A stretch of DNA of 64,000 nucleotides, taken from an uncultured Bifidobacteriaceae bacterium. GTDB lineage: Bacteria; Acidobacteriota; Vicinamibacteria; Vicinamibacterales; UBA2999. The notes beneath the pieces are model-generated. The model was not told the origin of the DNA, ran no database searches, and worked only from the letters and a program-made list of their open reading frames with translations. Shown one piece after another: positions 31,246-57,203 of the stretch. The number at the start of each line of letters is the position of its first letter. Position 1 is the stretch's first letter. Both the position numbers and the translations under genes were made by a program. The DNA lies in NCBI GenBank assembly GCA_964372085.1, contig CAYJPQ010000001.1:80435-144434 (forward strand). Reading direction: 5' to 3'.

Positions 31246-33024
31246 GTGAAATTCCCCCAATCCTTCATCGACGAAGTGCGCGCGGCCGCCGACATCGTGG
31301 CCGTGGTGTCGGATTCCGTCTCGTTGCGCAAGGCCGGCAGCACCTACAAGGGCCTCTGCCCGTTCCACGGCGAGAAGACCCCGTCGTTCACGGTGAACCG
31401 CGACAAGGGCTTCTTCCATTGTTTCGGCTGCGGCGTGGGCGGCGACGTGTTCAAGTTCGTGGAGCTGCAGGAGAAGATTGGCTTCGTCGACGCCCTGCGC
31501 CTGCTCGCGCAGCGCTTCGGCATCCCCATCCCCGAAACCGAGGCAGGCGACGCGCCCCGCGAGAGCGCCGCCGAGCGCGAGGCGCTCACGAAGATCCACG
31601 AGGTGGCCGCGCAGCACTTCCGGGAGCAACTCGAGTCTCCCGCCGGCGCGCGCATCCGCCAGTACCTGCTCACGGAGCGCGGCCTCACCGAGGAGACCAT
31701 CGCCAAGCTGCAACTGGGCTACGCGCCGCCCGGCCGCGACCTGCTGCGCCAGCGCCTGCTGAAGCAGGGCTTCTCGCCGCTGCAGCTCGTGACGAGCGGT
31801 CTCGTCAGCCGGCGGGACGATGGGTCGGAGGTGGACCGGTTCAGGAACCGGCTGATGATTCCCATCGCGCGCGACACGGGCACCATCATCGCCTTCGGCG
31901 GCCGCGCGCTCGACGCCGACCAGCAGCCGAAGTACCTCAACTCGCCCGAGACGCCCATCTACACGAAGAGCCGCACGCTCTACGGCCTGAACCTGACGAA
32001 GGGTGACATCCGCAAGCGCAACTTCGCGATGGTCGTGGAGGGCTACTTCGACTTCGCGCAGGTGTACCAGACGGCGGAACTGCCGGTGGTGGCCACGTGC
32101 GGCACGGCGCTCACGCCGCAACAGGCGCAGGCGCTGCACCGCTTCGCGACCAAGGTGGTGCTCTGTTACGACCCCGACCGCGCGGGCCAGACGGCCGCGG
32201 AGCGCAGCTCGGAACTGCTGGTGGCCGAGGGCTTCGTGGTGAATGTCATCTCGCTGCCCGGGGGCGGCGACCCCGACACCTTCCTGCAGAAGCAGGGCCG
32301 CGAGGCGTTCGTGGCCGAGCTCAAGCGGTCGCGGCCCTACCTGGAGTTCCTGCTCGACCGCGCCGCGGCCGAGCACGACCTGTCGCGCGACGACAGCCGG
32401 CGTGCATTTCTGAGCAGGATGCTGGGGGTGGCGGCCCGTATCCCCGACCCGGCCGTGCGCGACCAGTTTGCCGACCGCCTGGCCCACAAGGCCCGGGTCA
32501 CGGAGGCCGTGGTGCGGTCAGAAATCCGGAAAGCCGCCGCCGAACGGAAGACCGAGCTCCCGGCCGAGCGCCTGCCGAGCCTCGTCACCCGGCTCCGGCC
32601 GGCTGAGAAAGGCCTCCTCTGGACGCTGATTCACCAGCCGGTGGAAACCGTGCCCTGGCTAAGGATGCTGGAACCCGAAGATATACAAGGACTTAGGTCA
32701 GAGAACGTCCTTCGGATTGCCCTGGGCCTGGAAATTTCGCCCGCGGATGTGCCGGCCGCGCTGATGGAGCGTCTAAGTACTCAGGAGGCCGAGATGCTCG
32801 CCGCCATCGCGGCGGAGGCCTCTTCCCCCGTTCTCCGGCCCGACGTCAGCGTTTTCTCCCTCAAACGCCTGCGCCTCGAGCGCGAGCAGGCCGAGGTTCA
32901 GCGGGAAATCGACCGCTTGCAGGCGGCCGGCGAGAAGGGCGCGGACCTGACGGCGCTGCTCCGGCGAAAGATGTCGGTGCAGCGCGACCTGGAGGCCATG
33001 TCCCGGTCGGACGAGATACAATAG
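31246..33024 (+). CDS. dnaG: DNA primase
   Basis: GTG 31246 ([11 protein letters not shown]...), 592 aa. Zinc finger [34 protein letters not shown] and TOPRIM (MVVEGYFD). Confidence 0.95.
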
Positions 33025-33092
33025 AGGGCTCCCCGCGAACGGAAGCGGGTTCCTTCCCGGCTGCAGTCATTTGGTTGGAGGTCGCACGCAAT

Positions 33093-34805
<1,713 letters not shown>

Positions 34806-34868
34806 GGAACCGGCGGGCCTGCCCCGCCGTAGTCCGCCTCGCGCGGAGCGCTCTGGCGAGACGAAGGC

Positions 34869-34941
34869 GGGCCCATAGCTCAGCGGTTAGAGCGGCCGGC
34901 TCATAATCGGTTGGTCCCTGGTTCGAATCCAGGTGGGCCCA
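34869..34941 (+). tRNA. tRNA with CAU anticodon, elongator type (tRNA-Met, or tRNA-Ile2 if lysidine-modified)
   Basis: Hand-folded cloverleaf: acceptor GGGCCCA/TGGGCCC, D arm GCTC-AGCGGTTA-GAGC, anticodon arm GCCGG-CTCATAA-TCGGT, variable TGGTC, T arm CCTGG-TTCGAAT-CCAGG, discriminator A. 73 nt with no encoded CCA. It is not an initiator: positions 1:72 are paired and the anticodon stem lacks the GGG/CCC pairs. Confidence 0.9.
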
Positions 34942-34947
34942 CTCTTT

Positions 34948-35038
34948 GGAAGTGAGAAGTCACAAGTGAGAAGTTGGAAGGAACCCATGCCACAGCGCTC
35001 GCCGCTTCTCACTTCTCACTTCTCACGTCTCACTTCAC
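34948..35038. repeat. imperfect inverted repeat whose arms are 7-nt tandem arrays (GTGAGAA / TTCTCAC)
   Basis: Left arm GGAAGTGAGAAGTCACAAGTGAGAAGTTGGAAGG (34948-34981). Right arm CTTCTCACTTCTCACTTCTCACGTCTCACTTCAC (35005-35038). About 21 of 25 positions are complementary. It begins 7 nt after the tRNA and ends 4 nt before the next ATG. Confidence 0.8.
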
Positions 35039-35042
35039 TGTG

Positions 35043-35837
35043 ATGCTTCCAGATCTTGAGAGACTGATAGAGCTTCAAGAGATCGAAACGCGGGCGGGCG
35101 CGGCGGCCAGGACCATCGCCGAGGCCCCGGCCCGCGTTGCCGCCCTCGACGCCCTCCTGCTGGGCGCCACCACCGCCCTCGCCACCGCCAAGCAAGCCCT
35201 GGCCGACAACCAGGCCGCCCGCCGCAGCATCGACAAGGACCTCCTCTCCGCCCAGCAGCGCCAGAGCAAGTACAAGGAACAGCTCATGGCGGTGAAGACC
35301 AACGACGAGTACCATGCGATGCAGCACCAGATCACCGCCGTGGGCGTTGAGGTGGGCCAGTGCGAGGAGAAGGTGCTCATCAACATGATGGAGGCCGACG
35401 AGATCAACGCCGCCATCAAGAAGGCCGAGGCCGCCCTCAAGGCGGCGCAGGCCAAGGTGGCCGCCGAGCGCGCCGCCATCGAGCAGGAAGTGGCCGCCAG
35501 CCAGGGCGTGGCCGCCGAGTGCGCCACCGCCCGCGCCGGCGTGGTGGCCGCCATGGCCGACAAGGGCATGGTCGAGACCTTCATGCGCATCGCCAAGGTG
35601 CGCGGCACGGCCGTGGCCCGCGCCGAGCACGAGCGCTGCACGGTGTGCCAGGTGCGCCTGCGCCCGGCCGTGTTCGTCAACGTGCTCAAGAACGACCAGA
35701 TCGTGCAGTGCGACAGCTGCAACCGCATCCTGTACTTCGTGCCGCCCGCCTCCGCTCGCCCCGCTGCACCCGCTGCACCCGTTGCACCCGTTGCACCCGC
35801 TGCACCCGCTGCACCCGCTGCACCCACCCAATCGTGA
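35043..35837 (+). CDS. coiled-coil / C4 zinc-ribbon protein (COG1579, DUF164-type)
   Basis: Internal ATG 35043 (MLPDLERLIELQEIE...), 264 aa. Long coiled coil followed by CTVC...CDSC. The same gene pairing with RNase H occurs in actinobacteria (M. tuberculosis Rv2229c/Rv2228c, from memory). Confidence 0.85.
   Translation: MLPDLERLIELQEIETRAGAAARTIAEAPARVAALDALLLGATTALATAKQALADNQAARRSIDKDLLSAQQRQSKYKEQLMAVKTNDEYHAMQHQITAVGVEVGQCEEKVLINMMEADEINAAIKKAEAALKAAQAKVAAERAAIEQEVAASQGVAAECATARAGVVAAMADKGMVETFMRIAKVRGTAVARAEHERCTVCQVRLRPAVFVNVLKNDQIVQCDSCNRILYFVPPASARPAAPAAPVAPVAPAAPAAPAAPTQS
35763..35825. repeat. 7 x 9-nt in-frame tandem repeat (GCTGCACCC / GTTGCACCC)
   Basis: Encodes AAPAAPVAPVAPAAPAAPAAP at the extreme C-terminus of the zinc-ribbon protein, ending 9 nt before its stop and the rnhA start overlap. 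Confidence 0.9.
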
Positions 35838-36235
35838 TCACGGCGTATTTTGACGGCGGCTCGCGCGGCAACCCCGGCCTCGCCGGCTGGGGTGCGTTCA
35901 TCGTCCACGCCGACGGCACCGTGCTCGCGGAGCTGTCGGGCGCGCTGGGCGTGGCCACCAACAACGTGGCCGAGTACCACGGCCTCATCGCCGCACTGCA
36001 GTGGGCGGTAGACAACGACGTCACCGCGCTCACGGTGAAGGGCGACTCGTTGCTGCTCGTGGAGCAGATGCGCGGCAACTACAAGGTGAAGAACGAGGGC
36101 CTCAAGCCCCTGCACGTGCAGGCGCGCCTGCTGGTGATGCAGATCGGCAACGTCTCGTTCCACCACGTGCCGCGCGAGAAGAACAAGGACGCCGACCGGC
36201 TCTCCAACGTCGGCATGGACGCCAACGGAGCATAG
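35834..36235 (+). CDS. rnhA: ribonuclease HI
   Basis: GTG 35834 overlaps the upstream stop (GTGA). 133 aa. DGGSRGNPG, NNVAEYHGLIAAL and REKNKDAD supply the DEDD catalytic residues. Confidence 0.88.
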   Translation: MITAYFDGGSRGNPGLAGWGAFIVHADGTVLAELSGALGVATNNVAEYHGLIAALQWAVDNDVTALTVKGDSLLLVEQMRGNYKVKNEGLKPLHVQARLLVMQIGNVSFHHVPREKNKDADRLSNVGMDANGA

Positions 36236-36263
36236 CGCTCGCGCCGAGTCCGTTCGCGCTACA

Positions 36264-36473
36264 ATGAGCCCTCACATGACGGACGCTTGGGTGCGGAAAC
36301 ACAGCTCCTTCGACGACGACCGGCGCGCGGATCGTGAGTTCTGGCGTACGGTGCCGGCCGACGCCCGCGTGGCCGCCGTCGAAGATCTCCGCAGGCAATG
36401 GGCGCGGTTCCAGGGGGCCGATGACGAAGGACTTCGAAGAACTGTTCGCGTGCTTGAGGCGCCGGAGCGTTAA
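36264..36473 (+). CDS. small hypothetical protein, putative antitoxin-like partner of the downstream NTase-like gene
   Basis: 69 aa (or 65 aa from ATG 36276). It overlaps the next CDS by 53 nt. No recognisable DNA-binding motif by eye. Confidence 0.5.
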   Translation: MSPHMTDAWVRKHSSFDDDRRADREFWRTVPADARVAAVEDLRRQWARFQGADDEGLRRTVRVLEAPER

Positions 36474-36855
36474 GGCCCTCGTCGTGGGAGGCTATGCCGT
36501 CGCCTTCCACGGCCAGCCGCGGTTCACGAAGGACATCGACGTGTTTGTCGAGCCCTCTCCAGACAACGCCGAGCGCCTGCTGGCCGCGCTCTCGGACTTT
36601 GGCTTTGGCGGTCTGGGCCTGACCGTGGCCGATTTCGCGACTCCGGGGAAGATCGTCCAACTCGGCGTGGCGCCGAACCGCGTGGACGTGTTGACGACGA
36701 TCGACGGCGTGACGTTTGACGAAGCCTGGCCCGGCCGGGTGTCGGGCCACTACGGCACCGAGGCCGTGGACTACATCGGCCGCGCGGAGCTCATTCGCAA
36801 CAAACGTGCGAGCGGGCGGCCACAGGACCTGCTGGACATCGAAGCGCTCGAGTAG
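36421..36855 (+). CDS. small nucleotidyltransferase-fold-like protein (DUF6036-like; uncharacterised TA-type family)
   Basis: Internal ATG 36421 (MTKDFEELFACLRRRSVKALVVGGYAVAFHG...TKDIDVFV), 144 aa. G-x-A...D-x-D spacing reminiscent of minimal NTases. Confidence 0.7.
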   Translation: MTKDFEELFACLRRRSVKALVVGGYAVAFHGQPRFTKDIDVFVEPSPDNAERLLAALSDFGFGGLGLTVADFATPGKIVQLGVAPNRVDVLTTIDGVTFDEAWPGRVSGHYGTEAVDYIGRAELIRNKRASGRPQDLLDIEALE

Positions 36856-37120
36856 GGCCGCCTCAGCCTGGCGGTGCGTGGCCGAGGCGCCGTGGAGGAA
36901 GACCTTGTCGCCGCTCTTGATGACCGCGACCGCGTCATCGGCGCTGATTGCACGTTGCCTCCAGGCGTCGCCCGTCGATGCCATGTTCCCTGGGATACCG
37001 TGCGTCGGCCGCCGGGTGCGGACAGGGCGGCGTTGAGGTAACGTCGTAGTCCTGACACGTCACCCATCGCGATCCCGCTGGACGACCGGCGACTATCTCA
37101 CCCACCGCTTCAATCCCGAA

Positions 37121-39613
37121 TTGGGGATCGGCCGGGTCGCCGCAATCGAGGCCCGTGCGATTGTGGTGGAGTTCCCGCGCTCGGGCGCCACGCTCCGGCT
37201 GGCCGCCGGCGCGGATGTCCTGCTCCCCGTCGACCTGAGCCCGGGACGGCCGGTCCGCATCACGGCCACCCAGCAAGACACGACGATCACCGCACGCCTG
37301 CCGGACGGCACCCTGCGGCTCGCGAACGGGCGCTCGGCATCTCCCCACGAGCTGTGGCCGCTGGAACTCGAAGGCGCGCTCCTCGAACGCCTCGCCGCCG
37401 GGGAACTCGACGACGTCGAGGACTTCATCACGCGGATGAACATTCTGCACCTCCTGGGCATTCGCGAGGCCGACGGCCTGGGGTCGTTCCTGGGCGGGCG
37501 CGTCCGGCTGTTCCCGCACCAGCTTCACGTGGCGGAGCGGGCCACGGCCACCGATCCCGTGCGCTGGCTGCTCGCCGACGAGGTGGGCCTCGGCAAGACC
37601 ATCGAGGCCTCGCTCATCCTCAACAGGCTCGTCCACGCCGGCAAGGTCACGCGCTGCCTGGTGGTGGCGCCGGAGACCCTCACCGTGCAGTGGCTCGGCG
37701 AGCTGTGGCGGAAGTATCACCAGGTGTTCACCCTGCTCGACTCGGAGCGCCTCGGCGACGTGGCGCACGACTTCGGTGAAGGCTTCAACCCCTTCGAACT
37801 CCACCGCCGGTCGGTCGTCTCGCTCGAGATGCTGATGGCCCGCCCGCACCTCACCGAACAGGCCGTGCAGGCCGGCATCGACCTGCTCGTGGTGGACGAG
37901 GCGCAACGGCTCCGGCGGCCGCCCGGCCACCCCGGCGATGCGGCCTGGCGCGCCGTCGCGCCCATCGCGGGCCTGGGTCGCCACGTGCTGCTCCTGAGCG
38001 CCACGCCGCTCGAAGACGACGCGCACGGGTTCTTCCGGCTGCTGCAGTTGCTGCGCCCGAACGAGTTTCCAGAAGACACGAGCTTCGAGGCACGGCTCGC
38101 CCAAGGCACCCCCCTGCCCGCCTGCACCAGCTCGACCCGCCGGGCCGACATCGGCGGCTTGCCGCCGCGGGTGGGGATTCCGATTGAACTCGGCGACCCC
38201 AGGAGCGGGACGCTGCGAGCCGCCGTCGAGAAGGCGGTGCGATCCACGGTGGCGCCGCATGCGGTCGCGGCACGCGAGAAGATCGATCGCGTCCGCCGTG
38301 CGCTCGCGTCAGGCGCCGCGCTCGGCGCGGTGCTGGGCCCGGACGACGCGGATCTGCGGAAGCAGGCCGAGGCCATGGACGCCAGGGATGCCCGCGTCCA
38401 GTGGCTGGCCTCGCAGGCGCCCGCGTGGCGCAAGGCGGGAGAGAAGACCCTGGTCTTCGTGGCGCATCGCGAGACCCTCGAGATGCTCCGCACGGCCTTG
38501 AGCCAGCGGGCCCAGTTGGCCACCGGCGTCTTTCACGAGGACCTCTCGTCGGCGCGCCGCGACACCGAGGTGGCGCGGTTTCGCGAGTCGGACGGTCCCA
38601 GCCTGCTCGTGTCCACCGAGTGCGGCGGCGAGGGCCGCAACTTCGAGTTCTGCCGCCGCCTGATCCTGTTCGACCTGCCCTGGAAGCCGTCGGTGGTGGA
38701 ACAGCGCATCGGGCGGCTCGACCGGATTGGCCGCCGCATTCCCGTGGAGGTGGTCTACTTTCGCCCGCCCGGCGGGATTGGCCGCGATGTCGTGAGGCTC
38801 TTCGAGGCGCTGGGCCTGTTCCGCGAGCCGCTCGCGGGGCTCGAGCCGCAGCTCGCCCCCGTGGAGGGCGCGCTCGATGAGATCGCGCTCGACCCGGACG
38901 CCTCGCTCTCGGAGGCGCGCTTCGAGGCGCTCGTGGCCGAGGCCCAGGCGGCGCACACCCGCATCCGCGAAGCGGCGTACCAGCAGCTCCATCGCGACCC
39001 GTATCGCGCGGACATGGCCGACGGCATCCTCGCGCGGGTGCCCAAGGAGCTCGACGCGCTCAACGAGGAGGTGGTCGTCACGGCCTCCATCGGCCTGGGG
39101 TTCACCATTGCGCATCCGCCGGGCCACCGGGTGTTCTCGATCGAGCTCGGCAGCGGCTCCCGCGTGGAGGGCTTGCCCGGCGTTCCGGCGGGCGCGAGCT
39201 ACGTCGGCACCTTCGATCGCGAGGAGGCCGTGGAAAACGAGTTCATCGACTTCTTCGCTTCTGGGCACCCGCTCGTGGAGGGCCTCTTCGCCCACTACGA
39301 GGAGGGCTCGCTTGGCCGGGCCGTGCGGTTCGAGATGGCCATCGGTGGGGACACCGGCGAGGGGCTCGTGGCCCTCTACAAGGACGGGCCGGCCTTCGAG
39401 GTGATCGCGCTCGACTCCACCGGCGCCCCACGGCTGGACTGGGCGGCCGCGATCTGCCGGCGGCCGATCCTGGCGCGCCCCGTCACCGGCAAGGCGGCCC
39501 AGGATCCCGACTGGCGGAGCATGGTCCGCCTCCTCGGCGCCCAACTCGACCCCACCCGCCGCCTGCACGCGCTCGCCGCCATCGTCGTCAGGCCTACCGC
39601 CACGGCTCTGTAG
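37121..39613 (+). CDS. rapA: RNA polymerase-associated SNF2 ATPase RapA (HepA)
   Basis: 830 aa from TTG 37121. Colinear with E. coli RapA as remembered: ELGIGRV Tudor-like N-terminus, LFPHQL, LLADEVGLGKTIEA, VVDEAQRL, LLLSATP, EGRNFEF...LFDLPW.PSVVEQRIGRLDRIG, FDREEAV. The true start is probably upstream of 37121 (see findings). Confidence 0.92.
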   Translation: MGIGRVAAIEARAIVVEFPRSGATLRLAAGADVLLPVDLSPGRPVRITATQQDTTITARLPDGTLRLANGRSASPHELWPLELEGALLERLAAGELDDVEDFITRMNILHLLGIREADGLGSFLGGRVRLFPHQLHVAERATATDPVRWLLADEVGLGKTIEASLILNRLVHAGKVTRCLVVAPETLTVQWLGELWRKYHQVFTLLDSERLGDVAHDFGEGFNPFELHRRSVVSLEMLMARPHLTEQAVQAGIDLLVVDEAQRLRRPPGHPGDAAWRAVAPIAGLGRHVLLLSATPLEDDAHGFFRLLQLLRPNEFPEDTSFEARLAQGTPLPACTSSTRRADIGGLPPRVGIPIELGDPRSGTLRAAVEKAVRSTVAPHAVAAREKIDRVRRALASGAALGAVLGPDDADLRKQAEAMDARDARVQWLASQAPAWRKAGEKTLVFVAHRETLEMLRTALSQRAQLATGVFHEDLSSARRDTEVARFRESDGPSLLVSTECGGEGRNFEFCRRLILFDLPWKPSVVEQRIGRLDRIGRRIPVEVVYFRPPGGIGRDVVRLFEALGLFREPLAGLEPQLAPVEGALDEIALDPDASLSEARFEALVAEAQAAHTRIREAAYQQLHRDPYRADMADGILARVPKELDALNEEVVVTASIGLGFTIAHPPGHRVFSIELGSGSRVEGLPGVPAGASYVGTFDREEAVENEFIDFFASGHPLVEGLFAHYEEGSLGRAVRFEMAIGGDTGEGLVALYKDGPAFEVIALDSTGAPRLDWAAAICRRPILARPVTGKAAQDPDWRSMVRLLGAQLDPTRRLHALAAIVVRPTATAL

Positions 39614-39766
39614 CAGGAAATGCTACGGGATTCGGCCACTCCTGTCGCAGGATCTGCGATCCCCGAGATTCCTGATCCGCGATTTGCTCGGAAATGTGAC
39701 CGGCACGCGATTCGCACCATTCAGTGCGCCGCTGCCGATCGAATCCGGGGGAGAGGGGATGGTAGG

Positions 39767-40360
39767 ATGAGCCGCATGGCCGGGCATCAGCACACGGACG
39801 AGGCCCGCGCGTCCACGCGCAAGCTCACGTACGTAGACTTCCTTGAGTTCCCCGACGATGGGCAGCGGCACGAGCTCATCGATGGGGAGCACTACGTGAC
39901 GCCGTCGCCGTTCCTGAGGCACCAGGAGCTGTCAAGGAGACTGACCGTCGAGCTGGAACTGCACCTCCGCCAGCATGGGGGTGGGCGGGTGTTTTATGCC
40001 CCGCTCGATTGTGTCTTCACCGACTTCGACGTCGTCGAGCCCGACATCCTGCTGGTGACAGCGGACCAGTTCCACATCCTCACCGAGGAGCACATCCAGG
40101 GCGCGCCGGCATTGGTGGTGGAAATCCTCTCCAAGGGCACGAGGAAGGTGGACGAGACGATCAAGCGCGACCTGTACGATAGGGTCGGTGTCCGCGAGTA
40201 TTGGCTGGTGGACCCGGCGGGACAGCGGATCACCGTCTACGCGCGAAGCGGCGACCGCCTCGGTCGCCAGCAGCACCTGTCCGCCGAACGACACGATACG
40301 CTGACTACGACCCTGCTACCAGGGTTTGCGTTGTCGCTCTCGGACTACTTCTTGCCGTAG
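39767..40360 (+). CDS. Uma2 family (DUF820) restriction-endonuclease-fold protein
   Basis: Internal ATG 39767 preceded by GGTAGG. 197 aa. Motifs VVEPDILLV, VVEILSKGTRKVDETIKRDLYDRVGVREYWLVDP. Confidence 0.85.
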   Translation: MSRMAGHQHTDEARASTRKLTYVDFLEFPDDGQRHELIDGEHYVTPSPFLRHQELSRRLTVELELHLRQHGGGRVFYAPLDCVFTDFDVVEPDILLVTADQFHILTEEHIQGAPALVVEILSKGTRKVDETIKRDLYDRVGVREYWLVDPAGQRITVYARSGDRLGRQQHLSAERHDTLTTTLLPGFALSLSDYFLP

Positions 40361-40380
40361 CTGTGCGATGATGCACAGCC

Positions 40381-41370
40381 ATGACCGCTCACACCCTGAC
40401 CTCCCTTGCCGTCGCCGGCACCCTGGCGCTCGCCGCCCTGCCGGCGGCCGGCCAGACCATCACCTACGAGCCCACCGCGGGCGTGCCCACCTTCGCGGTG
40501 CGAGAGCCGGTGCTGCGCCTCACGCCGGGCACGACGGTGCAGACGCGCACCTTCTCGAAGCCGGGCGACTATTACGATCCGACCGTGGCGGGCCCCTGGC
40601 CGGGCGAGGTGGGACCGTTCCACATCGAGGGCGCGGCCCCTGGTGACACGCTGGTGGTGCGCGTGCTGCGGCTCAGGCCCAACCGCGACATCGCCATCTC
40701 CAACGTCACGCCGGGCGGCATCAGCGGGGTGGCGGCCGACAGCCGCACGCGGCTGCTGAACGAGCCGCTGCCGGCGCGCCGCTTCGTGTGGCAGCTCGAC
40801 CGGGCGCGCAACGTGGGCATCATCGACCTGCCCAACTCGGCGATCAAGAAGATGGAGATCCCGCTGCGGCCGATGCTGGGCCGCGTGGCCACGGCGCCGG
40901 CGGGCGAAGAGGAGTTCGGCGGCCTGTGGCCGGGCGACTTCGGCGGCAACATGGACGCCTCCGACGTCACCGAGGGCGCCACGGTGTACCTGCCGGTGTT
41001 CCACCCGGGCGGACAGTTCTACTTCGGCGACTTTCACGCCGCGCAGGGCGACGGCGAGATCGCCGGCTCGGGCCTCGAGTCGACGGCCGATGTCACCTTC
41101 CAGTTCGACGTCATCAAGGGCAGGCGCCTCCGCTGGCCGCGGCTCGAGAACGACGAGTACATCATGGTGCTGGGCAGCCAGCGGCCGCTGATCGACGCGC
41201 TGCGCATCGCCTACGTCGAGCTGATCGAGTGGATGGTGGCCGACTACGGCTTCGACAAGATGGAGGCGTACCAGGTGGCCTCGCAGGCGGGCGTGGTGCG
41301 CGTGGCCAACGTGGTGGACCCGCACTACACGGTGGTGGCGAAGTTTCCGAAGGCGCTGCTCAAGCGGTAG
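40381..41370 (+). CDS. acetamidase/formamidase family protein, secreted
   Basis: 329 aa with signal peptide. GGNMDASDVTEGATVYLPV and GDFHAAQGDGEIAGSGLE are typical FmdA/AmdA motifs. Confidence 0.88.
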   Translation: MTAHTLTSLAVAGTLALAALPAAGQTITYEPTAGVPTFAVREPVLRLTPGTTVQTRTFSKPGDYYDPTVAGPWPGEVGPFHIEGAAPGDTLVVRVLRLRPNRDIAISNVTPGGISGVAADSRTRLLNEPLPARRFVWQLDRARNVGIIDLPNSAIKKMEIPLRPMLGRVATAPAGEEEFGGLWPGDFGGNMDASDVTEGATVYLPVFHPGGQFYFGDFHAAQGDGEIAGSGLESTADVTFQFDVIKGRRLRWPRLENDEYIMVLGSQRPLIDALRIAYVELIEWMVADYGFDKMEAYQVASQAGVVRVANVVDPHYTVVAKFPKALLKR

Positions 41371-41381
41371 CCGCGCGCATT

Positions 41382-41414
41382 GTGATATCACATCTTTTCA
41401 TGAAGTGATATCAT
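41382..41414 (+). promoter_or_regulatory. two copies of a 10-bp palindrome (GTGATATCAC / GTGATATCAT); candidate operator of the RHH-MNT gene
   Basis: Copies at 41382-41391 and 41405-41414, 23 nt centre to centre. The second copy overlaps the ATG at 41413. This is an AT-rich island in a GC-rich context. Confidence 0.5.
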
Positions 41415-41997
41415 GCAGGCAATGGTTGCCGCCAGCCGCCGGACGCCGCCCGTGGCCCGGGTGCTGCTGCGCCTTCCGGCCGACCTCCACCGGTCGCTGA
41501 CCCGGGCCGCCGAGGCGGATGGGCTCTCGTTCAACGAGTTTTGCGTACGGCGTTTGCGCACGCCCGCCCAGCCGCAGCAGATGTCCGCGGCCCGGACCGC
41601 GGTGGTGCACCGCGCCCAGGCCGCCTTTGGCCCGCGCCTGCTCGGTGTGTTGGCGCTCGGCTCGTGGGCCCGCGGCGAGGCTGGGGCCGCCTCCGACATC
41701 GACGCGCTCATCGTGATCGATCCGAACACGCCGCTCACGCGCGACCTCTACCGAGCCTGGGATCGGGATCCCCTGGCCGTGGAGGGCCGCGTGGTCGACG
41801 CGCACTTCGCGCACCCGTCCCCGGCGGGAACCACGCCCGGTGCTGTGTGGTGCGAGGCCGCGGTGGACGGCCTGTTATGGTACGACCGGGACGGGCAGAT
41901 TCAGCAGCGCCTGGGGGAGATCCGCCGGGCGATCGCGGAGCGCCGCGTGGTGCGGAGCTTCGCGCACGGACAACCGTATTGGAAGGGAGCGGCGTGA
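41413..41997 (+). CDS. ribbon-helix-helix (HicB/Arc-like) domain fused to a minimal nucleotidyltransferase (MNT) domain
   Basis: 194 aa. N-terminal VLLRLPADLHRSLTRAAEADGLSFNEFCVRRL (RHH-type) followed by GSWARGEAGAASDIDALIV (GS-x9-D-x-D NTase motif). Confidence 0.85.
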   Translation: MQAMVAASRRTPPVARVLLRLPADLHRSLTRAAEADGLSFNEFCVRRLRTPAQPQQMSAARTAVVHRAQAAFGPRLLGVLALGSWARGEAGAASDIDALIVIDPNTPLTRDLYRAWDRDPLAVEGRVVDAHFAHPSPAGTTPGAVWCEAAVDGLLWYDRDGQIQQRLGEIRRAIAERRVVRSFAHGQPYWKGAA

Positions 41998-42521
41998 TGC
42001 ACAACCGGGAGTTGGCCGCCGACCACCTGCGCCGGGCCGGCGCCCGCCTTCGCGCGCTCGACGTGCTGCACGAGGCCGGCAGCTGGGCCGACGTCGTCCG
42101 CGAGTCGCAGGAAATTGTGGAGCTCACGTTGAAGGGACTGCTGCGCGCCTTTGGGGTGGACCCGCCGCGGATCCACGACGTGGCCGACGTGCTCATTGCC
42201 GAGCGCGAGCGCCTCCCGAAGGACTTGTGGCCACACCTCGATCGATTGGCCACCGTCTCGAGGACCCTGCGGCGCGATCGCGAGCTGGCGTTCTACGGCG
42301 CCGAAGACCTGACGCCCTCGTCGTTTTATCGCGAGGCCGACGCGGTGAGCGCGCGCGACAGCGCGCGCGACGTCGTGGGGGGGGGGGGGGGGCGCGGGGG
42401 CCCCCCCGCGGGGGGGGCGCCGCCGCCCCCCCCCCCCCCCCCCGCCGGCGGGTCACCGGGCGCGGGCTCTCGCCCGAGGTGCCCGCGCGGCGCGCCTCCG
42501 CCTCGTCACTGCACGCAGTAG
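41997..42521 (+). CDS. HEPN domain protein; genuine sequence ends about 42376 and the rest is read-through of a G/C low-complexity tract
   Basis: ATG 41997 overlaps the MNT stop (TGATG). The first 127 aa are HEPN-like (LRRDRELAFYG). From 42377 the frame reads GGGGGRGGPPAGGAPPPPPPPP..., so the natural C-terminus and stop are missing. Confidence 0.7.
   Translation: MHNRELAADHLRRAGARLRALDVLHEAGSWADVVRESQEIVELTLKGLLRAFGVDPPRIHDVADVLIAERERLPKDLWPHLDRLATVSRTLRRDRELAFYGAEDLTPSSFYREADAVSARDSARDVVGGGGGRGGPPAGGAPPPPPPPPAGGSPGAGSRPRCPRGAPPPRHCTQ
42377..42443. repeat. composite G/C homopolymer tract (junction 1)
   Basis: Counted by hand: G16-CGC-G5-C7-GC-G8-CGCCGCCG-C18. It shares GGGGGCGCGGGGG+C-run and G8-9-CGCC+C-run modules, in the same order and orientation, with 52352-52424. 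Confidence 0.9.
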
Positions 42522-43033
42522 AGCCCGCTGGCGTTGCCGACCTCTTCGCACGACCAGAACGTGGGGCAGTCGGTGAAGTCCATGCAGGTCTTCGAGCAGT
42601 AGCCGAACTGGGTGTCCGGCGCGAACAGGCAGGCGTCGTACATGCAATCGGCGTTGTCCTGACACTGGCTCCCGAGATCGTCGCCTCCGCCGCCGGTCGT
42701 CGTGGACGTGTTGCCTCCCGACGACGTCGAGCCGCCGGTGGTGCTGCCGCCGCACGAGCCCGGCGTCGGCGAGCAGGCCGAAGGATCGAAGTCGTTGAAG
42801 CACTGGTCGACGGCGCCCTGCGACGGGCAGGTGAAGTGCTCGTCGTTGAGGCAGCACTCGAAGCTCGACGAGCCGGAGCCGCTGGTGGAGCCGTTGCCCG
42901 AGCCGCTGCTCGAGCCGTTGCCCGAGCCGTTCGTGTTGTCGCCGCCCGCGCCGCCGCCGCCGCTCTCGCCGCCGCAGCCGATCACCACCGCGCAGATCCC
43001 GATCCCGACCAAGCCAACGAAACGCGTGAACAT
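42506..43033 (-). CDS. Cys-rich lipoprotein (uncharacterised)
   Basis: Internal ATG 43033 (MFTRFVGLVGIGICAVVIGCGG, lipobox VIGC), 175 aa. Gly/Ser/Asn linker followed by a Cys-rich module CQDNADCMYDAC...YCSKTCMDFTDCP...C. Confidence 0.7.
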   Translation of the reverse strand: MFTRFVGLVGIGICAVVIGCGGESGGGGAGGDNTNGSGNGSSSGSGNGSTSGSGSSSFECCLNDEHFTCPSQGAVDQCFNDFDPSACSPTPGSCGGSTTGGSTSSGGNTSTTTGGGGDDLGSQCQDNADCMYDACLFAPDTQFGYCSKTCMDFTDCPTFWSCEEVGNASGLYCVQ

Positions 43034-43208
43034 CGCTCTCTCCTCGTGGAAATGGAGGCACCCGCGCACCGCGCGCGCGTCCCTCGCTGGACCTCGCCGC
43101 GCGGCGCCCGTCGGGGGCTCTCCGCTCGGCTCATCGGTACGACGCGCCGGGGCGGGCGCTGTAACACGAATTTTTTGGTGAGCCGGAAACGTCCGCGCGT
43201 TCGCGTGC

Positions 43209-44039
43209 TTACCCGCGCGGCGTGTCCGCCTCGGGGGCGAGGAGCCGATCGAGGCTGACGTCGAGCTGGCTGAGGCAGAGGCGCGTCACGCTGGCGAGCT
43301 CGGCCTCGTCGAGCTGGAGGCGATCGCGGAGGAGGGCGCGGGTGCCGTCGAGCAGCTTCTGCCGCGTCTGCCCCAGCCAGCGCGCCACGCTCACCCGGTG
43401 GACGCCGTAGATCCCGGCCACCTCGTCGGCGGTGAGGCCGTCGGTGTAGACCAGGCGGAGCACGTTGCGATCCTTCGGGGAGAGACCGGTGAGCGCGTCG
43501 CGGAACGCCTGGCTGAACGGCTCGGCGTAGCGCGCGCGCACCTGGGCGAGCTCGGGATCGTCGTCCGCCGCGAGCTCGCCGAGCGCCGAGTCGCCGGCGT
43601 GGTCGTCGCGCGCCTGCTTGCGGTACTCGCTCAGCGCCTCGTGCACCGTGAGCGCCCTCAGCCAGGCGCGGATCGGCCCCTTGCCCGTGTAGGTCACGAT
43701 CCTCGGCTCGGCGCCCTCGGCGGCGACGAAGAGCTTGTGGCGGATGCGCTGGAGGATCTCGTCGTTCGCCGCGCCGCGGAGCCGCAGGCGCGCGAGCGCC
43801 CTCGGCGCCTCGAGCGCGAGCTCGGCCTCGAACGCCGCGAGCGCGGCCGGATCGCCCTCGGCGCAGCAGGCGGCGAGGTAGAGATCGGGCAGGTGGAGCG
43901 CGCCGGTCGCGGCGCCCGCCTCGAGGTGCGACGCCAGCCGTCGCGCGAAGCGCCCGTCGCCCCCGGCGAGGCCGGGCCGGGAGGCCCGGGCCGAGGCGAG
44001 CGCCTGGGCGATCATGCCCTGGGGACCGACATCGACCAC
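43209..44039 (-). CDS. ECF-type sigma-70 family factor with extended N-terminus (Myxococcales-type subfamily)
   Basis: 276 aa (GTG 44039; alternative ATG 44015). Region 2-like PIRAWLRALTVHEAL and region 4 LVYTDGLTADEVAGIYGVHRVSVARWL. The N-terminal LHLPDLYLAACCAEGDPAALAAFE is typical of the myxobacterial ECF group I recall as TIGR03001-like. Confidence 0.82.
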   Translation of the reverse strand: MVDVGPQGMIAQALASARASRPGLAGGDGRFARRLASHLEAGAATGALHLPDLYLAACCAEGDPAALAAFEAELALEAPRALARLRLRGAANDEILQRIRHKLFVAAEGAEPRIVTYTGKGPIRAWLRALTVHEALSEYRKQARDDHAGDSALGELAADDDPELAQVRARYAEPFSQAFRDALTGLSPKDRNVLRLVYTDGLTADEVAGIYGVHRVSVARWLGQTRQKLLDGTRALLRDRLQLDEAELASVTRLCLSQLDVSLDRLLAPEADTPRG

Positions 44040-44076
44040 GCGCTCACGCTAGCAACAAACGACTATCCTGGCCCGG

Positions 44077-45144
<1,068 letters not shown>

Positions 45145-45157
45145 CGGCGCGCCGCGG

Positions 45158-46168
45158 TCAGGGCGCGCGGACCACCCAGCCGAGGCCGCCGCCGTCGAGC
45201 GCGGGCCGCTCCGGATCCGGGCGCGTCGCGGCGTACGTGGTGACGGCGGCGCCCGCCACGACGACGGCCGCCGCGCCCCAGAACCACCAGCGCGTGAGCA
45301 GGCTGGGCTGGTGCGGTTTGAGCGGCGCCGAGAGATCGACGCGCTGCCCCGCCTTCAGCGTCGTCGAGACCTCGTAGGGATCGAAGCCCGGCTTGCGGAC
45401 GAGGACCCGGTGGGCGCCGGCGCCGCGCTCCACGGACACCGGCGCGATGCCGACGTCGAGCCCATCGACGGCGACGACGGCGTCGCGCTCGTTCGAGGAG
45501 ACGCGCAGCATGGCAGGGAGCCGCTCGACCGCGAGGCGCAGCGCTCGCCGCTCGCCGGGGCGGACCGTCTCGCGGTGGAGCGCGTCGGCGAAGCCCTCGC
45601 GGGCGATGAGGAACACGTGCGGCCCGGGATCGAGCACGAGCCGGAACACCGGCGCCGGCGGAGGCTTGCCCGGCCCCGCCGGGAGCGTTCCCGCGAGCAG
45701 CGTCGGCCGATCGCCGCCCTCGGTCGGCTCGAGCGGCTGGCCGTCGACGGTGATCGCCGCGTCGCCGGGCTCGAGCGTCACCTCGAGCGTGGCCACGATC
45801 CGGTCGATCTCGGCGATGAACCGCTCGGTGTCGGTCACCGTCGCCTCGGGGAGATCGGCGTCGGGCTTGCGCTCGGCGAGCGCGCGGCCGAACGTGCGGC
45901 GCGCGCGGACGTACTGGCCGAGCGCGCGCTCGCACACCCCCATGTTGTACGTGGTCCAGGCGTGCGGCCGGCGGCGAGCGGAGCGCTCGAAGGCGGCGAG
46001 CGCCGCGCCCCACTGCGCGTCCTTCGCGAGCTCGGCGCCGCGGGCGAAGTCGGCGCGGGCCTCGGCCACGCCGTCGGCGTCCTGCGCCGTCGCCGGCGGC
46101 GCGGCGGAGGCGAGCGCGACGGCGAGCGCCATCGCCGCGAAGGACCGCTCGACACGTGCGGGAGCCAC
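45158..46168 (-). CDS. PEGA domain protein with N-terminal TPR-like region and C-terminal TM anchor
   Basis: 336 aa from GTG 46168 (alternative ATG 46132), with signal peptide. PEGA-like modules (ITVDGQP..., VAVDGLDVGIAPV...VLVRKPGFDPYE) and the TM segment WWFWGAAAVVVAGAAV. Confidence 0.75.
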   Translation of the reverse strand: MAPARVERSFAAMALAVALASAAPPATAQDADGVAEARADFARGAELAKDAQWGAALAAFERSARRRPHAWTTYNMGVCERALGQYVRARRTFGRALAERKPDADLPEATVTDTERFIAEIDRIVATLEVTLEPGDAAITVDGQPLEPTEGGDRPTLLAGTLPAGPGKPPPAPVFRLVLDPGPHVFLIAREGFADALHRETVRPGERRALRLAVERLPAMLRVSSNERDAVVAVDGLDVGIAPVSVERGAGAHRVLVRKPGFDPYEVSTTLKAGQRVDLSAPLKPHQPSLLTRWWFWGAAAVVVAGAAVTTYAATRPDPERPALDGGGLGWVVRAP

Positions 46169-46182
46169 GCTCCGTGTGTCCC

Positions 46183-47544
46183 TCAGAACGGGACCTTTGT
46201 CAGCAGCTTTGTCGGGGCCGCGTCGGAGCTCGCCGGAGGCGCCGCGGTCGCATTCGCCGACGCCGCGCTCGCCGTGGGCGCCGGCGCCGGCGGCGTCTTC
46301 GCGGGCGGCTGGGGCGGGATCGCGCGATCGGCGCGCGCGGTCGACGCCGGCGGCACCGTGGGCGCACCCGACGGCGTCGAGGGACTGGCGGAGGTCGACG
46401 AGGCTGCGTTCGCGGCGGGCTCCCGCGCGGAGACGACCGCGCTCGGGGCGGGCTCCGCCGGCTCGGGGGGCGCCGTCGCGACCACGGCCGACGTGGCCGC
46501 GTCCGGCGACGGAGACGCCGGCTTCCCGAACGCGAGCACCCCGAGCGCGACGGCCGCGACCACGCCCGCGGCGGCGACGGCGACACGCGAGCGCGGCCGG
46601 GGGCTCCCCGCCGCGCCGCCGGTGGTCTCGCCGCTCGGGTTCGGCGTCGGCGCGGCCGAGAGGAATCGCGCCGGCGCGGCCCGGCCCACCCGCGCGCCGG
46701 CCGCGGCGCTCGGCGCTCCGGCGAGCGCCTCGAGGACCTCGCGCGCAGTGCCCGGCCGATCCGCGGGATCGATCGAGAGCAGCTCGCCGACGAGCCGCGC
46801 CACCGGCTCGGGCGTCGTGGGCACGCGCGCGGCGAGCGGCTCCAGCTTGCCGTTGGTCAAGAGGCGCAGCACCTGCCCGAGGTTCTCGGCCTGCGTCGGC
46901 GGCGCGCCGGCCAGGCACTCGTAGAGGATGACCCCGACGGCCCAGAGGTCGGCGCGCGCGTCGATGGGATCGCCGAACGCCTGCTCGGGCGCCATGTAGT
47001 AGGGCGTGCCGATCATCGCGCCCGTCGCGGTGAGCGCGCCGGACGCGCCGGGGACGCCCTCGGGGGCGACCACCTTGGCGACGCCGAAGTCGAGGATCTT
47101 CACCTCGCCGCCGTCGAGGAGGAAGAGGTTGTCCGGCTTGAGATCGCGGTGGACGATCCCGGCGGCATGCGCGGCCTCGAGCCCGCCGAGCACGGCGCGC
47201 ACGATGCGCAGCGCCTCGTCCAGGGGAAGCACCCGCTCGCGCGCGAGGCGCGCGCGCAGCGACTCGCCCTCGAGCAGGTCCATCACCAGGACCGGCGATC
47301 CGTCGTCGGCCTCGAGCACGTCGTGGACCGCGAGGATGCTCGGGTGGAGGGCGGCGCAGGCGGCCCGCGCCTCGCGCAGCATCCGCCGGCGGGCGCTCGC
47401 GTCGTCGCCGGTCGCGTGGAGGAGCTTGAGGGCGAAGGCCTTGCCCGTGACCGTGTGCCGCGCCGCCCAGACGCTGCCCATCCCGCCCTTGCCGAGAAGG
47501 CGCTCGAGGCGGTAGCGCTGGGCGATGACGTCTCCCGGCCCCAT
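46183..47544 (-). CDS. Ser/Thr protein kinase with Ala/Pro-rich C-terminal region
   Basis: 453 aa. GKGGMGSVW, ALK, HRDLKPDN, DFG, APE, and a low-complexity tail. Confidence 0.88.
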   Translation of the reverse strand: MGPGDVIAQRYRLERLLGKGGMGSVWAARHTVTGKAFALKLLHATGDDASARRRMLREARAACAALHPSILAVHDVLEADDGSPVLVMDLLEGESLRARLARERVLPLDEALRIVRAVLGGLEAAHAAGIVHRDLKPDNLFLLDGGEVKILDFGVAKVVAPEGVPGASGALTATGAMIGTPYYMAPEQAFGDPIDARADLWAVGVILYECLAGAPPTQAENLGQVLRLLTNGKLEPLAARVPTTPEPVARLVGELLSIDPADRPGTAREVLEALAGAPSAAAGARVGRAAPARFLSAAPTPNPSGETTGGAAGSPRPRSRVAVAAAGVVAAVALGVLAFGKPASPSPDAATSAVVATAPPEPAEPAPSAVVSAREPAANAASSTSASPSTPSGAPTVPPASTARADRAIPPQPPAKTPPAPAPTASAASANATAAPPASSDAAPTKLLTKVPF

Positions 47545-47588
47545 GGGCCCGGTGTAGCACCGGGCGGCGCGGGAAGGGATGACCTCAC

Positions 47589-47612
47589 CCCCTCTCCCTC
47601 ACGGGAGAGGGG
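47589..47612 (-). terminator. perfect 10-bp GC-rich hairpin downstream of uvrD
   Basis: CCCCTCTCCC-TCAC-GGGAGAGGGG, 25 nt past the reverse-strand uvrD stop. No U-tract. Confidence 0.4.
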
Positions 47613-47636
47613 AAGGAGCGGAGAGAGCGGGGTTCG

Positions 47637-50009
47637 TCAGAGGCGCAGGAACCGGAGCTTGATCCGCTTCACGCCCCAGCCGGGGAACTGGACCGAGGCG
47701 GTCGGGTCGTCGCCGCCGTCGACGCTCACGAGCTTGCCGGTGCCGAACTTCTCGTGGCTGACGCGGGCGCCGGGGCGCAGCGGGCCGTGGCCGCTTTCAT
47801 CCACGCCGGGGTCGCGCTCGACGTAGCGCTCGCCCGGAGCGTGGGACGGCTCCTCGCGGGCACGCGACGAGGCGGGCGCGTCGTAGCGCCGCTCTTCGAT
47901 GCGGGATCGGGGGCCGCCGTCGTCGGGGCCCGCGTGACCGCCGGACCGCGCCTGCGGGTGCGTCCAGGCGTCGCGGAGCCGGTCGAAGCTCGGGAGCCGA
48001 TCGACGCGGCGCTCGCCCACGCCCATCTGGCGCGCGGTGTCGGTCGCCATCGGCCGCACCGACGTCTTCGGGAGATCGCGGAGGAAGCGGCTGGGCACGC
48101 CGTAGCGGGTGGTGCCGAAGATCATCCGCCGCTGGGCGTGGGTGACGAAGAGGCGCTCGCGGGCGCGCGTGACGGCGACGTAGGCGAGGCGACGCTCCTC
48201 CTCGAGCTCCTCGGCTTCCTTCGGGTCGAGCCCGCGGAAGGGGAAGATCTCCTCCTCCATCCCGGTGAGGAACACGGCGTGGAACTCGAGCCCCTTGGCC
48301 GCGTGCACCGTCATCATCGCGACCTTGGGCGCGTCGGCGAGCTGATCGACGTCGCTCGAGAGCGTGACGCGCTCGAGATAGCCGTCGAGCGTCCCCACCT
48401 CGCCCGCCGCCGCGGCCTCCTCCTCGTACTCGGCGATGGAGCCGAGGAGCTCGTCGAGGTTCTGCAGTCGCGCCTCGCTCTCGGCGCTGTCGTCCTCGGC
48501 GAGCCAGCTCGCGTAGCCGGTCCGCTCCAGCACCTCCTCGGCGAGCACGTGCGGCGAGGCCGTCCGCGCCTCGCCGATGAGCCCCTGGAGCAGATCGCGG
48601 AAGGCGAGCAGGCTCTTCTTGGCCGCGGTCCCGACCGCCCCGCTCTGGCATGCCGGCTCGATGGCGTCGTAGAGCGACGTCTTGCGCTCGTCGGCGACCG
48701 CCGTCACGCGCGCCATCGTGGTGTCGCCGATCTTTCGGGAGGGCACGTTGACGATGCGGGCGAGGTCGACGTCGCTCCTCGGGTTGGAGATGACGCGGAG
48801 GTACGAGAGCAGGTCCTTGATCTCGGCGCGCTCGAAGAAGCGGGTGCCCCCGATGATCTGGTAAGGGATCCGCGCCGCGCGCATCACCTCCTCGAGCACG
48901 CGCGACTGGGCGTGGACGCGGTAGAAGACCGCGATGTCGCGCGGCGAGATCCCGCGGTCGATGAGCTCCTTCAGCCGCTCGACCACCCACGCCGCCTCGT
49001 CGCGCTCGCTCTCGGCGGCGACGACGTGGATGGGCTCGCCGTCGTTGCGCGCCGTCCACAGCTCCTTCGGCTCGCGATCGCGGGCGGGGCGGATGACGCC
49101 GAGGCCGCCCTTCACGATGTGCCCGGTCGAGCGGTAGTTCTGCTCGAGCTTGATCACCGTCGCTTCCGGGAAGTCGCGCCGGAAGTTGCGGATGTTGCGC
49201 ACGTCGGCGCCGCGCCAGCGGTAGATGCTCTGGTCGTCGTCGCCGACCACGCAGAGGTTCTTCCGCTCGCCGGCGAAGGCGCGGACGAGGCGGTACTGGA
49301 CGAGGTTCACGTCCTGGAACTCGTCGACGAGCACGTAGCGGAAGCGCCGGCGGAGCTCCTCCCCCGCGGGGATCGTCGGGTCCTCGGCGATGCGGAGGAC
49401 GGCGAGCAAGAGGTCCTCGAAGTCGACCGCGTTCGCGTCGCGGAGGTGGCGCTGGTACGCCTCGAAGCAGCGCCCGATGGCGTCGTCGAGGTAGCCCTCG
49501 GCGACGAACTGCTCCGGGCCCCGCGCCTCCTGCTTCTCCTTGTGGATGCGCGCCAGGATCTGCCGGGGCGGGTAGCGCTTGTCGTCGAGGTCGAGCTCCT
49601 TGAGGACGCGGTTCATGACGGCGCGCTGGTCGGCGTCGTCGTAGATGACGAAGCTGCGCTCGAGCCCGGCCGCGTCGTGGTGGCGGCGCAGCAGCCGGGC
49701 GCACACCGCGTGGAAGGTGCCGACCCAGAGGTCCTTGGCGACCTCGACGCCGAGCAGGCCCTCGAGGCGGCGCTTCATCTCGCCCGCCGCCTTGTTGGTG
49801 AACGTCACCGCGAGCACCCGGTAGGGCGGGACGCGGTGGCCCGCGACCAGGTTGGCGATGCGGTAGGTGATGACGCGGGTCTTCCCGCTCCCGGCGCCCG
49901 CGAACACCAAGAGGGGTCCGTCGACGTGGGCGACGGCGCTCGCCTGCGGCTCGTTGAGCTCCGGCGGCCCCTCGGGCGGCTCGGGCGAGGAGAGCTCGGC
50001 GTCGATCAT
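47637..50009 (-). CDS. uvrD: ATP-dependent DNA helicase UvrD/PcrA
   Basis: Start set at ATG 50009 (MIDAELSS...), 790 aa. Walker A GAGSGKTRV, motif II VDEFQD, and a C-terminal Tudor-like GARVSHEKFGTGKLV. The track start at 50183 would overlap the divergent gene. Confidence 0.93.
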   Translation of the reverse strand: MIDAELSSPEPPEGPPELNEPQASAVAHVDGPLLVFAGAGSGKTRVITYRIANLVAGHRVPPYRVLAVTFTNKAAGEMKRRLEGLLGVEVAKDLWVGTFHAVCARLLRRHHDAAGLERSFVIYDDADQRAVMNRVLKELDLDDKRYPPRQILARIHKEKQEARGPEQFVAEGYLDDAIGRCFEAYQRHLRDANAVDFEDLLLAVLRIAEDPTIPAGEELRRRFRYVLVDEFQDVNLVQYRLVRAFAGERKNLCVVGDDDQSIYRWRGADVRNIRNFRRDFPEATVIKLEQNYRSTGHIVKGGLGVIRPARDREPKELWTARNDGEPIHVVAAESERDEAAWVVERLKELIDRGISPRDIAVFYRVHAQSRVLEEVMRAARIPYQIIGGTRFFERAEIKDLLSYLRVISNPRSDVDLARIVNVPSRKIGDTTMARVTAVADERKTSLYDAIEPACQSGAVGTAAKKSLLAFRDLLQGLIGEARTASPHVLAEEVLERTGYASWLAEDDSAESEARLQNLDELLGSIAEYEEEAAAAGEVGTLDGYLERVTLSSDVDQLADAPKVAMMTVHAAKGLEFHAVFLTGMEEEIFPFRGLDPKEAEELEEERRLAYVAVTRARERLFVTHAQRRMIFGTTRYGVPSRFLRDLPKTSVRPMATDTARQMGVGERRVDRLPSFDRLRDAWTHPQARSGGHAGPDDGGPRSRIEERRYDAPASSRAREEPSHAPGERYVERDPGVDESGHGPLRPGARVSHEKFGTGKLVSVDGGDDPTASVQFPGWGVKRIKLRFLRL

Positions 50010-50166
50010 CCCCTGCTCGGTTAGCACGGCGGGGCGCGCTTGGGGAGCGGCGGAGGGCGCACCGCCGGACGGCGCGACGCGCGCATGATCGCCGTGGGAT
50101 CCGGACAAACTGTGGAGAGTTGTGCTCTTGACGCGGGCGCGCAGGCCCATCACGGGAGAGGGCGAC

Positions 50167-52284: not shown

Positions 52285-52346
52285 AGAGGAGTCGGACAAT
52301 CGTCCGACCCACGCCGCTCGAGGCCCGAGGTCCGACGCCTCTTCAG
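52281..52346 (+). terminator. 17-bp (one mismatch) stem-loop starting on the stop codon of the ATP-grasp gene
   Basis: CTGAAGAGGAGTCGGAC (52281-52297) pairs with GTCCGACGCCTCTTCAG (52330-52346). An alternative inner hairpin is GTCGGAC-AATC-GTCCGAC (52291-52308). The G/C tract begins 5 nt downstream. Confidence 0.45.
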
Positions 52347-52351
52347 TCCCC

Positions 52352-52951: not shown

Positions 52952-52970
52952 CGCCGCTCGCCTGCAACCG

Positions 52971-53043: not shown

Positions 53044-53077
53044 GGGGGTTTGGGGGCGGAGCCCCCATGTTGGGAGA

Positions 53078-57202: not shown

Positions 57203-57203
57203 A

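Follow-up and report, generated by a model that had tools for sequence, protein, structure and literature searches.

The question raised by this locus is whether a HEPN gene and a putative lipoprotein gene, separated by a long run of G and C residues, are neighbors in one genome or were brought together by the assembly. The run occupies positions 42377–42443 (junction 1) of the window, the whole 64-kb stretch of DNA that was analysed. It comprises 67 nt with the layout G16-CGC-G5-C7-GC-G8-CGCCGCCG-C18. On the left side, the G run is attached straight to the ...GTCGTGG of the HEPN gene, and the HEPN open reading frame (ORF) crosses the tract as a Gly/Pro-rich sequence with a stop at 42521. On the right side, the reverse-strand lipoprotein gene (42506–43069) is a complete ORF with a signal peptide and a lipobox-like VIGC motif. 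The G/C-only stretch at junction 1 reaches 42452 and totals 76 nt because the true right flank itself starts with G and C bases. The only comparable stretch within the window is found at 52348–52426 (79 nt with C14, C10, G11 and C16 runs), and the longest G/C-only run after these two tracts is 28 nt. When the window was simulated 200 times with a first-order Markov model, the maxima were at most 42 nt for G/C-only runs and at most 13 nt for G or C homopolymers, compared with the observed lengths of 76–79 and 16–18 nt, respectively; the junction-1 tract is far beyond chance. A sequence-only reading of the window had described this composition, which matches the sequence exactly, and had claimed that such runs occur elsewhere only at 52352–52424, that the HEPN ORF reads through after DSARDVV as poly-Gly/poly-Pro to the stop at 42521 and that the tract ends 62 nt past the lipoprotein stop. 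Each of these descriptions was borne out.

The HEPN ORF matches Pfam PF05168 (E=9.9e-14) over profile positions 2–110 of 117 and is preceded on the forward strand by a nucleotidyltransferase (MNT-like) gene with a HicB-like N-terminus (41413–41997; NTP_transf_2, PF01909, E=2.4e-5; HicB, E=5.4e-5). The nucleotidyltransferase stop and the HEPN start at 41997 share one base (TGATG). Thousands of homologous HEPN proteins of 136–140 aa were found, all of which end in ...DVVATVRPHV.. or ...ARDSARDVVATVRPHV.., and this conserved end indicates that about 13 natural residues are missing from the window ORF. The genuine HEPN part covers residues 1–126 of 140 (41997–42376, forward strand), and the final 13 codons and the stop are lost to what is read below as a false join. 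Among 11 versions of the HEPN 3' end in the collection, one is intact. Ten proteins (P0001–P0005, P0126, P0128, P0129, P0131 and P0134) are identical or nearly identical to the first 126 residues of the window HEPN, and each carries a different G/P/R-rich tail, with total lengths of 140–197 aa. Exact look-ups with the read-through HEPN and with the lipoprotein gave no match; the read-through product is present as a cluster member, P0126 (174 aa), on an NCBI contig of 182,617 bp.

Locus L103 supplies the natural gene end: it passes cleanly through the HEPN site as ...gacgtcgtggcgacggtgcgtccgcacgtcgtcaccggccagccgggatga and encodes an intact 140-aa HEPN protein (P0132) ending in ...DVVATVRPHVVTGQPG. 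The true continuation of the gene in the acidobacterium reads ...GACGTCGTGG-CGACGGTGCGTCCGCACGTCGTCACCGGCCAGCCGGGATGA, giving the 140-aa protein, and a convergent cytochrome c/cbb3 oxidase cluster lies downstream of it. The claimed loss of the natural HEPN end is thus confirmed by the comparison with relatives and by the end recovered in L103. The gene pair resembles MNT–HEPN toxin-antitoxin pairs in that the HEPN gene and its upstream partner carry the domains of such pairs, with a 1-nt overlap; it differs in that it provides genomic context only, the pair being ordinary and intact in L103. As judged from these comparisons, the HEPN gene is an ordinary 140-aa predicted MNT–HEPN partner that is not truncated in the organism.

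The left flank (segment A, 1–42376) is assigned to Acidobacteriota (Vicinamibacterales-like) by its RpoD protein, GC content, tetranucleotides and matching loci. Contigs containing this flank were retrieved via the HEPN-tail proteins, and all of them are SPAdes assemblies (ENA ERZ13692942 to ERZ13692972). Six other assemblies of the same strains (L081–L084, L103 and L104) carry the left flank at 99.7–100% identity, and window positions 31997–42376 are 99.8–100% identical to L081–L084 and L103. The shared genes encode an SNF2 helicase, Uma2, formamidase, the nucleotidyltransferase and HEPN, and the nucleotidyltransferase–HEPN pair is found in all six. To the right of HEPN, a convergent cytochrome c gene is followed by FixO and COX1 of the cbb3 oxidase cluster in L081, L082, L084, L103 and L104; L083 instead continues into HhH-GPD, KsgA, RNase J and FtsK genes and represents a second, different chimera. 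The lipoprotein, sigma factor and kinase genes of the window follow HEPN in none of the six left-flank assemblies. Among them, L103 agrees with the window at 100.000% over 6619 bp, with the identity extending up to 42378, and lacks the junction-1 tract. This empty-site assembly differs from the 'filled' L104 at one base.

The second chimera was located at positions 6612–6800 of L083 (ENA ERZ13692960 NODE_473). It is independent of the window and has the identical HEPN break point, where the acidobacterial flank is followed by ∼190 nt of G/C junk with an TAAAAAACAAAA island and then by the HhH-GPD/KsgA/RNase J/FtsK locus.

The right flank (segment B, 42444–52347) is Polyangiaceae DNA according to its UvrD protein, its GC content and its 99.3–99.95% identity to L085–L091. 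At least 22 contigs encode a protein identical to the Ser/Thr kinase of 44077–45144, and seven loci were retrieved from them. By BLAST, window positions 42377–55033 match these loci, L085–L091, in the identity range given above, and nothing in the window corresponds to the far sides of the other assemblies' loci (cytochrome c, HhH-GPD and LigD regions). Six of the seven loci (L085–L087 and L089–L091) have a LigD Prim-Pol gene to the left of the lipoprotein gene, followed by ArsR, MIP and ArsC-type genes. HEPN is observed to the left of the lipoprotein gene in none of these six loci, which have a resolved left context, and the seventh contig (L088) begins inside the tract with 43 G's. Segment B opens with GCCGGCGGGTCACCGGGCGCGGG, which is what truly lies 3' of the lipoprotein gene, and the DNA truly left of 42444 in the myxobacterium is the upstream region of the LigD Prim-Pol gene. 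The spacer between the LigD and lipoprotein genes is itself a G/C mess, mostly with a 10-N scaffold gap, and the junction-1 layout resembles the right-hand tip of this tract in L085 (G25 CCC G7 C7 GCC G6 CCGG C22). Beyond the second tract, segment C (52427–64000) belongs to the same Polyangiaceae genome as segment B, with which it is contiguous in L085–L088 and shares its tetranucleotide usage. In a related Polyangiaceae MAG (L002), homologues of 55838–57202 and 59386–60939 adjoin UvrD with order and orientation kept.

The two flanks of junction 1 differ in marker proteins, base composition and abundance. The RpoD protein of segment A (33093–34805) is 95% identical to a protein of an 'Acidobacteria bacterium' MAG and 89% identical to 'Vicinamibacterales bacterium' proteins, with one stray label ('Acidimicrobiia') among its relatives. 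The UvrD protein of segment B is 66% identical to that of Sorangium cellulosum So ce56 and 61% identical to that of a Polyangiaceae MAG, compared with at most 47% for other genome hits. Named Polyangium, Sorangium, Byssovorax and Minicystis proteins match it at 64–68%; Chondromyces is also found among its named relatives, together with one stray label. The GC content is 0.697 in segment A versus 0.736 in segments B and C, and the tetranucleotide correlation is 0.90 between B and C versus 0.54–0.64 between A and either B or C. In ERZ13692972, the one sample that contains both sides, the coverage is 16.8 for the A-side contig versus 7.5 for the B-side contig. Because marker proteins, GC content, tetranucleotides and coverage all differ across the tract, junction 1 appears to fuse an acidobacterium to a myxobacterium. 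By these measures, the DNA up to 42376 is shown to be that of a Vicinamibacterales-like acidobacterium and the DNA from 42444 that of a Polyangiaceae myxobacterium of the same samples.

The flanks thus come from different genomes, and the join between them is missing elsewhere: at six A-side and six B-side loci of 99.3–100% identity, each flank continues otherwise. The junction-1 tract is very probably an assembly artefact, and the adjacency of the HEPN and lipoprotein genes very probably false. The comparison assemblies apparently belong to one ENA study and probably share the same data type, so they are not technologically independent.

The nature of the junk is apparent from assemblies in which more of it is resolved. 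At all three sites where it occurs and in all assemblies, the junk is G-rich beside the left flank and C-rich beside the right flank, and it differs from assembly to assembly. In L081, L082 and L104, an apparent insert of ∼85–160 bp interrupts HEPN, after which the natural gene end resumes. The apparent inserts are bracketed by a direct repeat of 9–12 nt (ACGTCGTGG to GCGACGTCGTGG), and the tract at the LigD site is bracketed by a 23-nt direct repeat, the same GCCGGCGGGTCACCGGGCGCGGG with which segment B begins. Aligned ungapped and in register, the 60 nt past the break match the true downstream sequence at 63% in L081 and 62% in L082, levels reached by 0 and 3 of 5000 decoys, respectively. 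The right part of the L081 insert mirrors the true upstream flank, with TTTTAT rendered as TTTTTTTA. At the LigD site, L090 (222x) gives an in-register match of 55–63% (4–5 of 5000 decoys). Mismatches in the inserts and the adjacent flanks are nearly all towards G or C; a single A>T was seen among the flank mismatches, in L084. The best-resolved apparent inserts are, on the evidence of these alignments, degraded, G/C-converted in-register readings of the flanks, and the direct repeats accordingly represent the stretch over which two broken contig ends overlap. The 67 nt of the window are too degenerate for such a comparison, with no in-register similarity to either true flank detectable (z about 0.4–1.3).

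Similar composites are found beyond these samples. An exact search of IMG/VR for G14C14 returned 11 contigs from unrelated organisms with a GC content of 46–71%. Most of the tracts lie at a terminus of the contig or retrieved locus or within ∼100 nt of it, and three or four lie well inside; one contains an AAAAAA island like the islands at the present sites. G14C14 composites constitute a generic artefact class. Five viral contigs (L092, L094, L098, L099 and L102) carry G14C14-type composites away from the very end, and by analogy these interior composites may also mark false joins.

The apparent inserts could alternatively represent a real G/C-rich, small mobile or palindromic (MITE-like) element at the HEPN and LigD/lipoprotein sites, between copies of which the assembler jumped. 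The direct repeats that bracket the tracts at both sites, the inverted-repeat-like ends (rich in G on the left side and in C on the right side), the recurrence of the outer ∼30–70 nt between assemblies and the empty HEPN site in more distant relatives agree with such an element, and the first two traits are those of MITEs and other small inserts with target-site duplications. However, the site is also empty in L103, which matches the window perfectly over 6.6 kb and is only one base from the 'filled' L104, and the interiors contain no foreign DNA, consisting instead of in-register degraded flank copies that differ in every assembly and include N gaps even at 222x. The repeat length is inconstant as well (9–12 versus 23 nt, with none at tract 2), and an acidobacterium and a myxobacterium would both need to carry the family. 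An A/T-rich 'core' was considered as a further mobile-element trait and rejected, since the 'T7 core' is the flank's own TTTTAT. A mobile element is, on balance, very unlikely.

A genuine adjacency, either through a Polyangiaceae-derived island acquired by the acidobacterium or through a rearrangement at a real G/C-rich recombination site, would account for the presence of the contig in the public record and for the otherwise high-quality sequence of both flanks. Yet the join is observed in none of the retrieved A-side or B-side assemblies, and segments B and C, which hold housekeeping genes such as that for UvrD and span at least 21 kb to the window end, are 99.3–99.95% identical to contigs that continue otherwise beyond the tract. 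The ∼2.2-fold coverage difference within one sample and the interruption of HEPN in a run of codons exactly at the junk position of other assemblies also count against it, leaving real adjacency extremely improbable. The tract could also be viewed as a structural or regulatory element, such as a G-quadruplex or i-motif, a phase-variable homopolymer or a bidirectional terminator, because it lies between convergent ORFs and folds into a long G:C hairpin (-50.8 kcal/mol, z=-2.1). This folding is only marginally above the composition expectation, however, and the two 'convergent genes' originate from different phyla. The tract is unreproducible between assemblies and missing from L103, and it has no T-run for a terminator. 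The hairpin, terminator and G-quadruplex readings were rejected on folding close to the composition expectation in both the L081 insert (z=-0.6) and the window tract, and a genuine element of this kind is scarcely conceivable.

The assembly artefact favored here would arise through the following steps. At both true loci, reads would lose signal just past a fixed position in both directions, and the signal-poor bases would be called increasingly as G, or as C on the opposite strand, as in two-colour Illumina chemistry. The assembler would retain the degraded read tails as contig tips, and all tips would meet on poly-G/poly-C k-mers, forming a hub that can join any tip to any other. Via this hub, the acidobacterial tip would be linked to the myxobacterial tip, generating the composite tract and the poly-Gly/Pro tail of HEPN. 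The same hub could elsewhere produce a pseudo-insertion with a pseudo target duplication, a 10-N scaffold gap or a different chimera.

No-signal poly-G tails of two-colour Illumina chemistry create poly-G/poly-C contig tips, for which read trimmers provide poly-G trimming. The present junk shares with these tails the G-rich tips on the strand read and C-rich tips on the opposite strand, flank errors almost only towards G or C, and G_nC_m composites at or near contig ends in unrelated assemblies. It differs in that the degradation sets in at fixed positions of the genome, whichever way the site is read and in many samples, and stays in register for at least 60 nt, unlike plain poly-G after a short insert. 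As in other inter-genome chimeric metagenome contigs, unrelated genomes are joined at a short low-complexity node with a composition shift, and the join is unreproduced; here, however, the shared node is sequencing junk and not a conserved gene, rRNA or IS element. A literature search on poly-G misassembly, myxobacterial MITEs and the ENA analysis accessions returned nothing specific. The sequence-only reading had attributed the join to no-signal poly-G reads and collapsed low-complexity k-mers, and this proposal is supported by the phylum mismatch, the unreproduced join, the recovered HEPN end, the assembly-specific junk and the degraded flank copies. It is refined in two respects: the join spans phyla, beyond two mere loci, and the tract at 52352–52424 is the same junk yet marks no false adjacency. 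Its fallback of a real G-quadruplex/i-motif element found no support, as the tract as written is not genomic sequence.

The breaks occur at identical positions in at least 10 assemblies or samples of two phyla with coverages from 5x to 222x. GC-dropout was rejected as the cause of the break sites, as the HEPN site has a GC content of 76% in 100 nt, which is only the 89th percentile. Short, G/C-rich inverted repeats flank the two sites: (GC)8-ACA-(GC)8 and CGACGGTGC..GCACGTCG at the HEPN site and GCGCGGCCGCGC and GCGCGGGC..GCCCGCGC at the LigD site. By themselves, these repeats were likewise rejected as the break cause, because their folding is no better than that of shuffled sequences (z=-0.9 and -1.7). 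Sequence-specific errors in Illumina reads are reportedly triggered by inverted repeats and GGC motifs. By analogy, such errors plausibly contribute to the breaks, given that both break sites are bracketed by inverted repeats and that the errors start past them in a direction-dependent manner. The present case differs in that correct k-mers spanning the site are almost completely lost, at coverages up to 222x, and the repeats are ordinary for a 70% GC genome by the same z values. It is also conceivable, although unlikely, that the fixed break points (the HEPN 3' end, the LigD/lipoprotein spacer and the spacer between a ddl-like gene and a 131-aa gene) harbor a property of the DNA, physical or intrinsic to its sequence, that blocks Illumina chemistry bidirectionally. 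The candidates are an unusually stable structure, breakage at a specific site or, in the case of tract 2, a real segment of extreme G/C richness that was never correctly read.

The second junk tract (52348–52426) is located in the last of these spacers and marks a genuine adjacency. Its flanks are the same in L085–L088, which indicates that the ddl-like gene and the 131-aa gene are true neighbors. The interior of the tract measures 79, 190, 96, 121 (including an N10 gap) and 177 nt in five assemblies, none of which agree. No in-register similarity to the flanks was detected within offsets of ±25 nt, and no direct repeat bracketing the tract is visible. The true sequence at this site could include a genuinely G/C-rich stretch. 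A stem-loop at 52283–52345, directly past the ddl-like stop and just before the tract, is formed by GAAGAGGAGTCGGAC...GTCCGACGCCTCTTC (-19.1 kcal/mol, z=-4.4, 0 of 200 shuffles) and is probably the terminator structure of the ddl-like gene. The ddl-like gene (50122–52284) encodes a protein of ∼705–720 aa with two D-Ala-D-Ala-ligase-like ATP-grasp modules and divergently adjoins UvrD (47637–50183). Sorangium cellulosum So ce56 retains this pair, with 74% identity for the ddl-like protein.

The public NCBI MAG contig of 182,617 bp, from which the window apparently derives, seems to combine acidobacterial DNA (at least 42 kb) with myxobacterial DNA (at least 21 kb), and its MAG is therefore likely contaminated across phyla. 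P0135 lies on this contig, as does P0126. At least 10 corrupted versions of one protein are now present in protein collections, as read-through of the junk alters gene calls and lets corrupted protein variants enter databases. False gene fusions arise from the same junk, and gene calls beside the tracts shift among L085–L091: the LigD Prim-Pol protein is called with 313, 346 or 364 aa and the ddl-like protein with 705 or 775 aa, the 346-, 364- and 775-aa calls being examples of such fusions. The junk pattern can also mimic a mobile-element insertion with a target-site duplication. G_nC_m composites inside contigs are worth screening as chimera markers. No new biology follows from the junction-1 tract, and its use lies in exposing a public contig as an inter-phylum chimera.

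Smaller irregularities were also observed away from the tracts. Relative to L103, mismatches are densely clustered at positions 2788–2863 of L084 and 12714–12915 of L081. The L084 cluster consists mostly of G>C or A>C changes and splits the SNF2 gene into two calls; the two clusters represent either further local error bursts or strain variation. In segment A of the window, a G9 run (29371–29379) and a 26-nt G/C-only stretch with a G8 run (29656–29681) lie near the boundary of two reverse-strand genes (26198–29488 and 29489–31195), and both are inside the range of the chance simulations.
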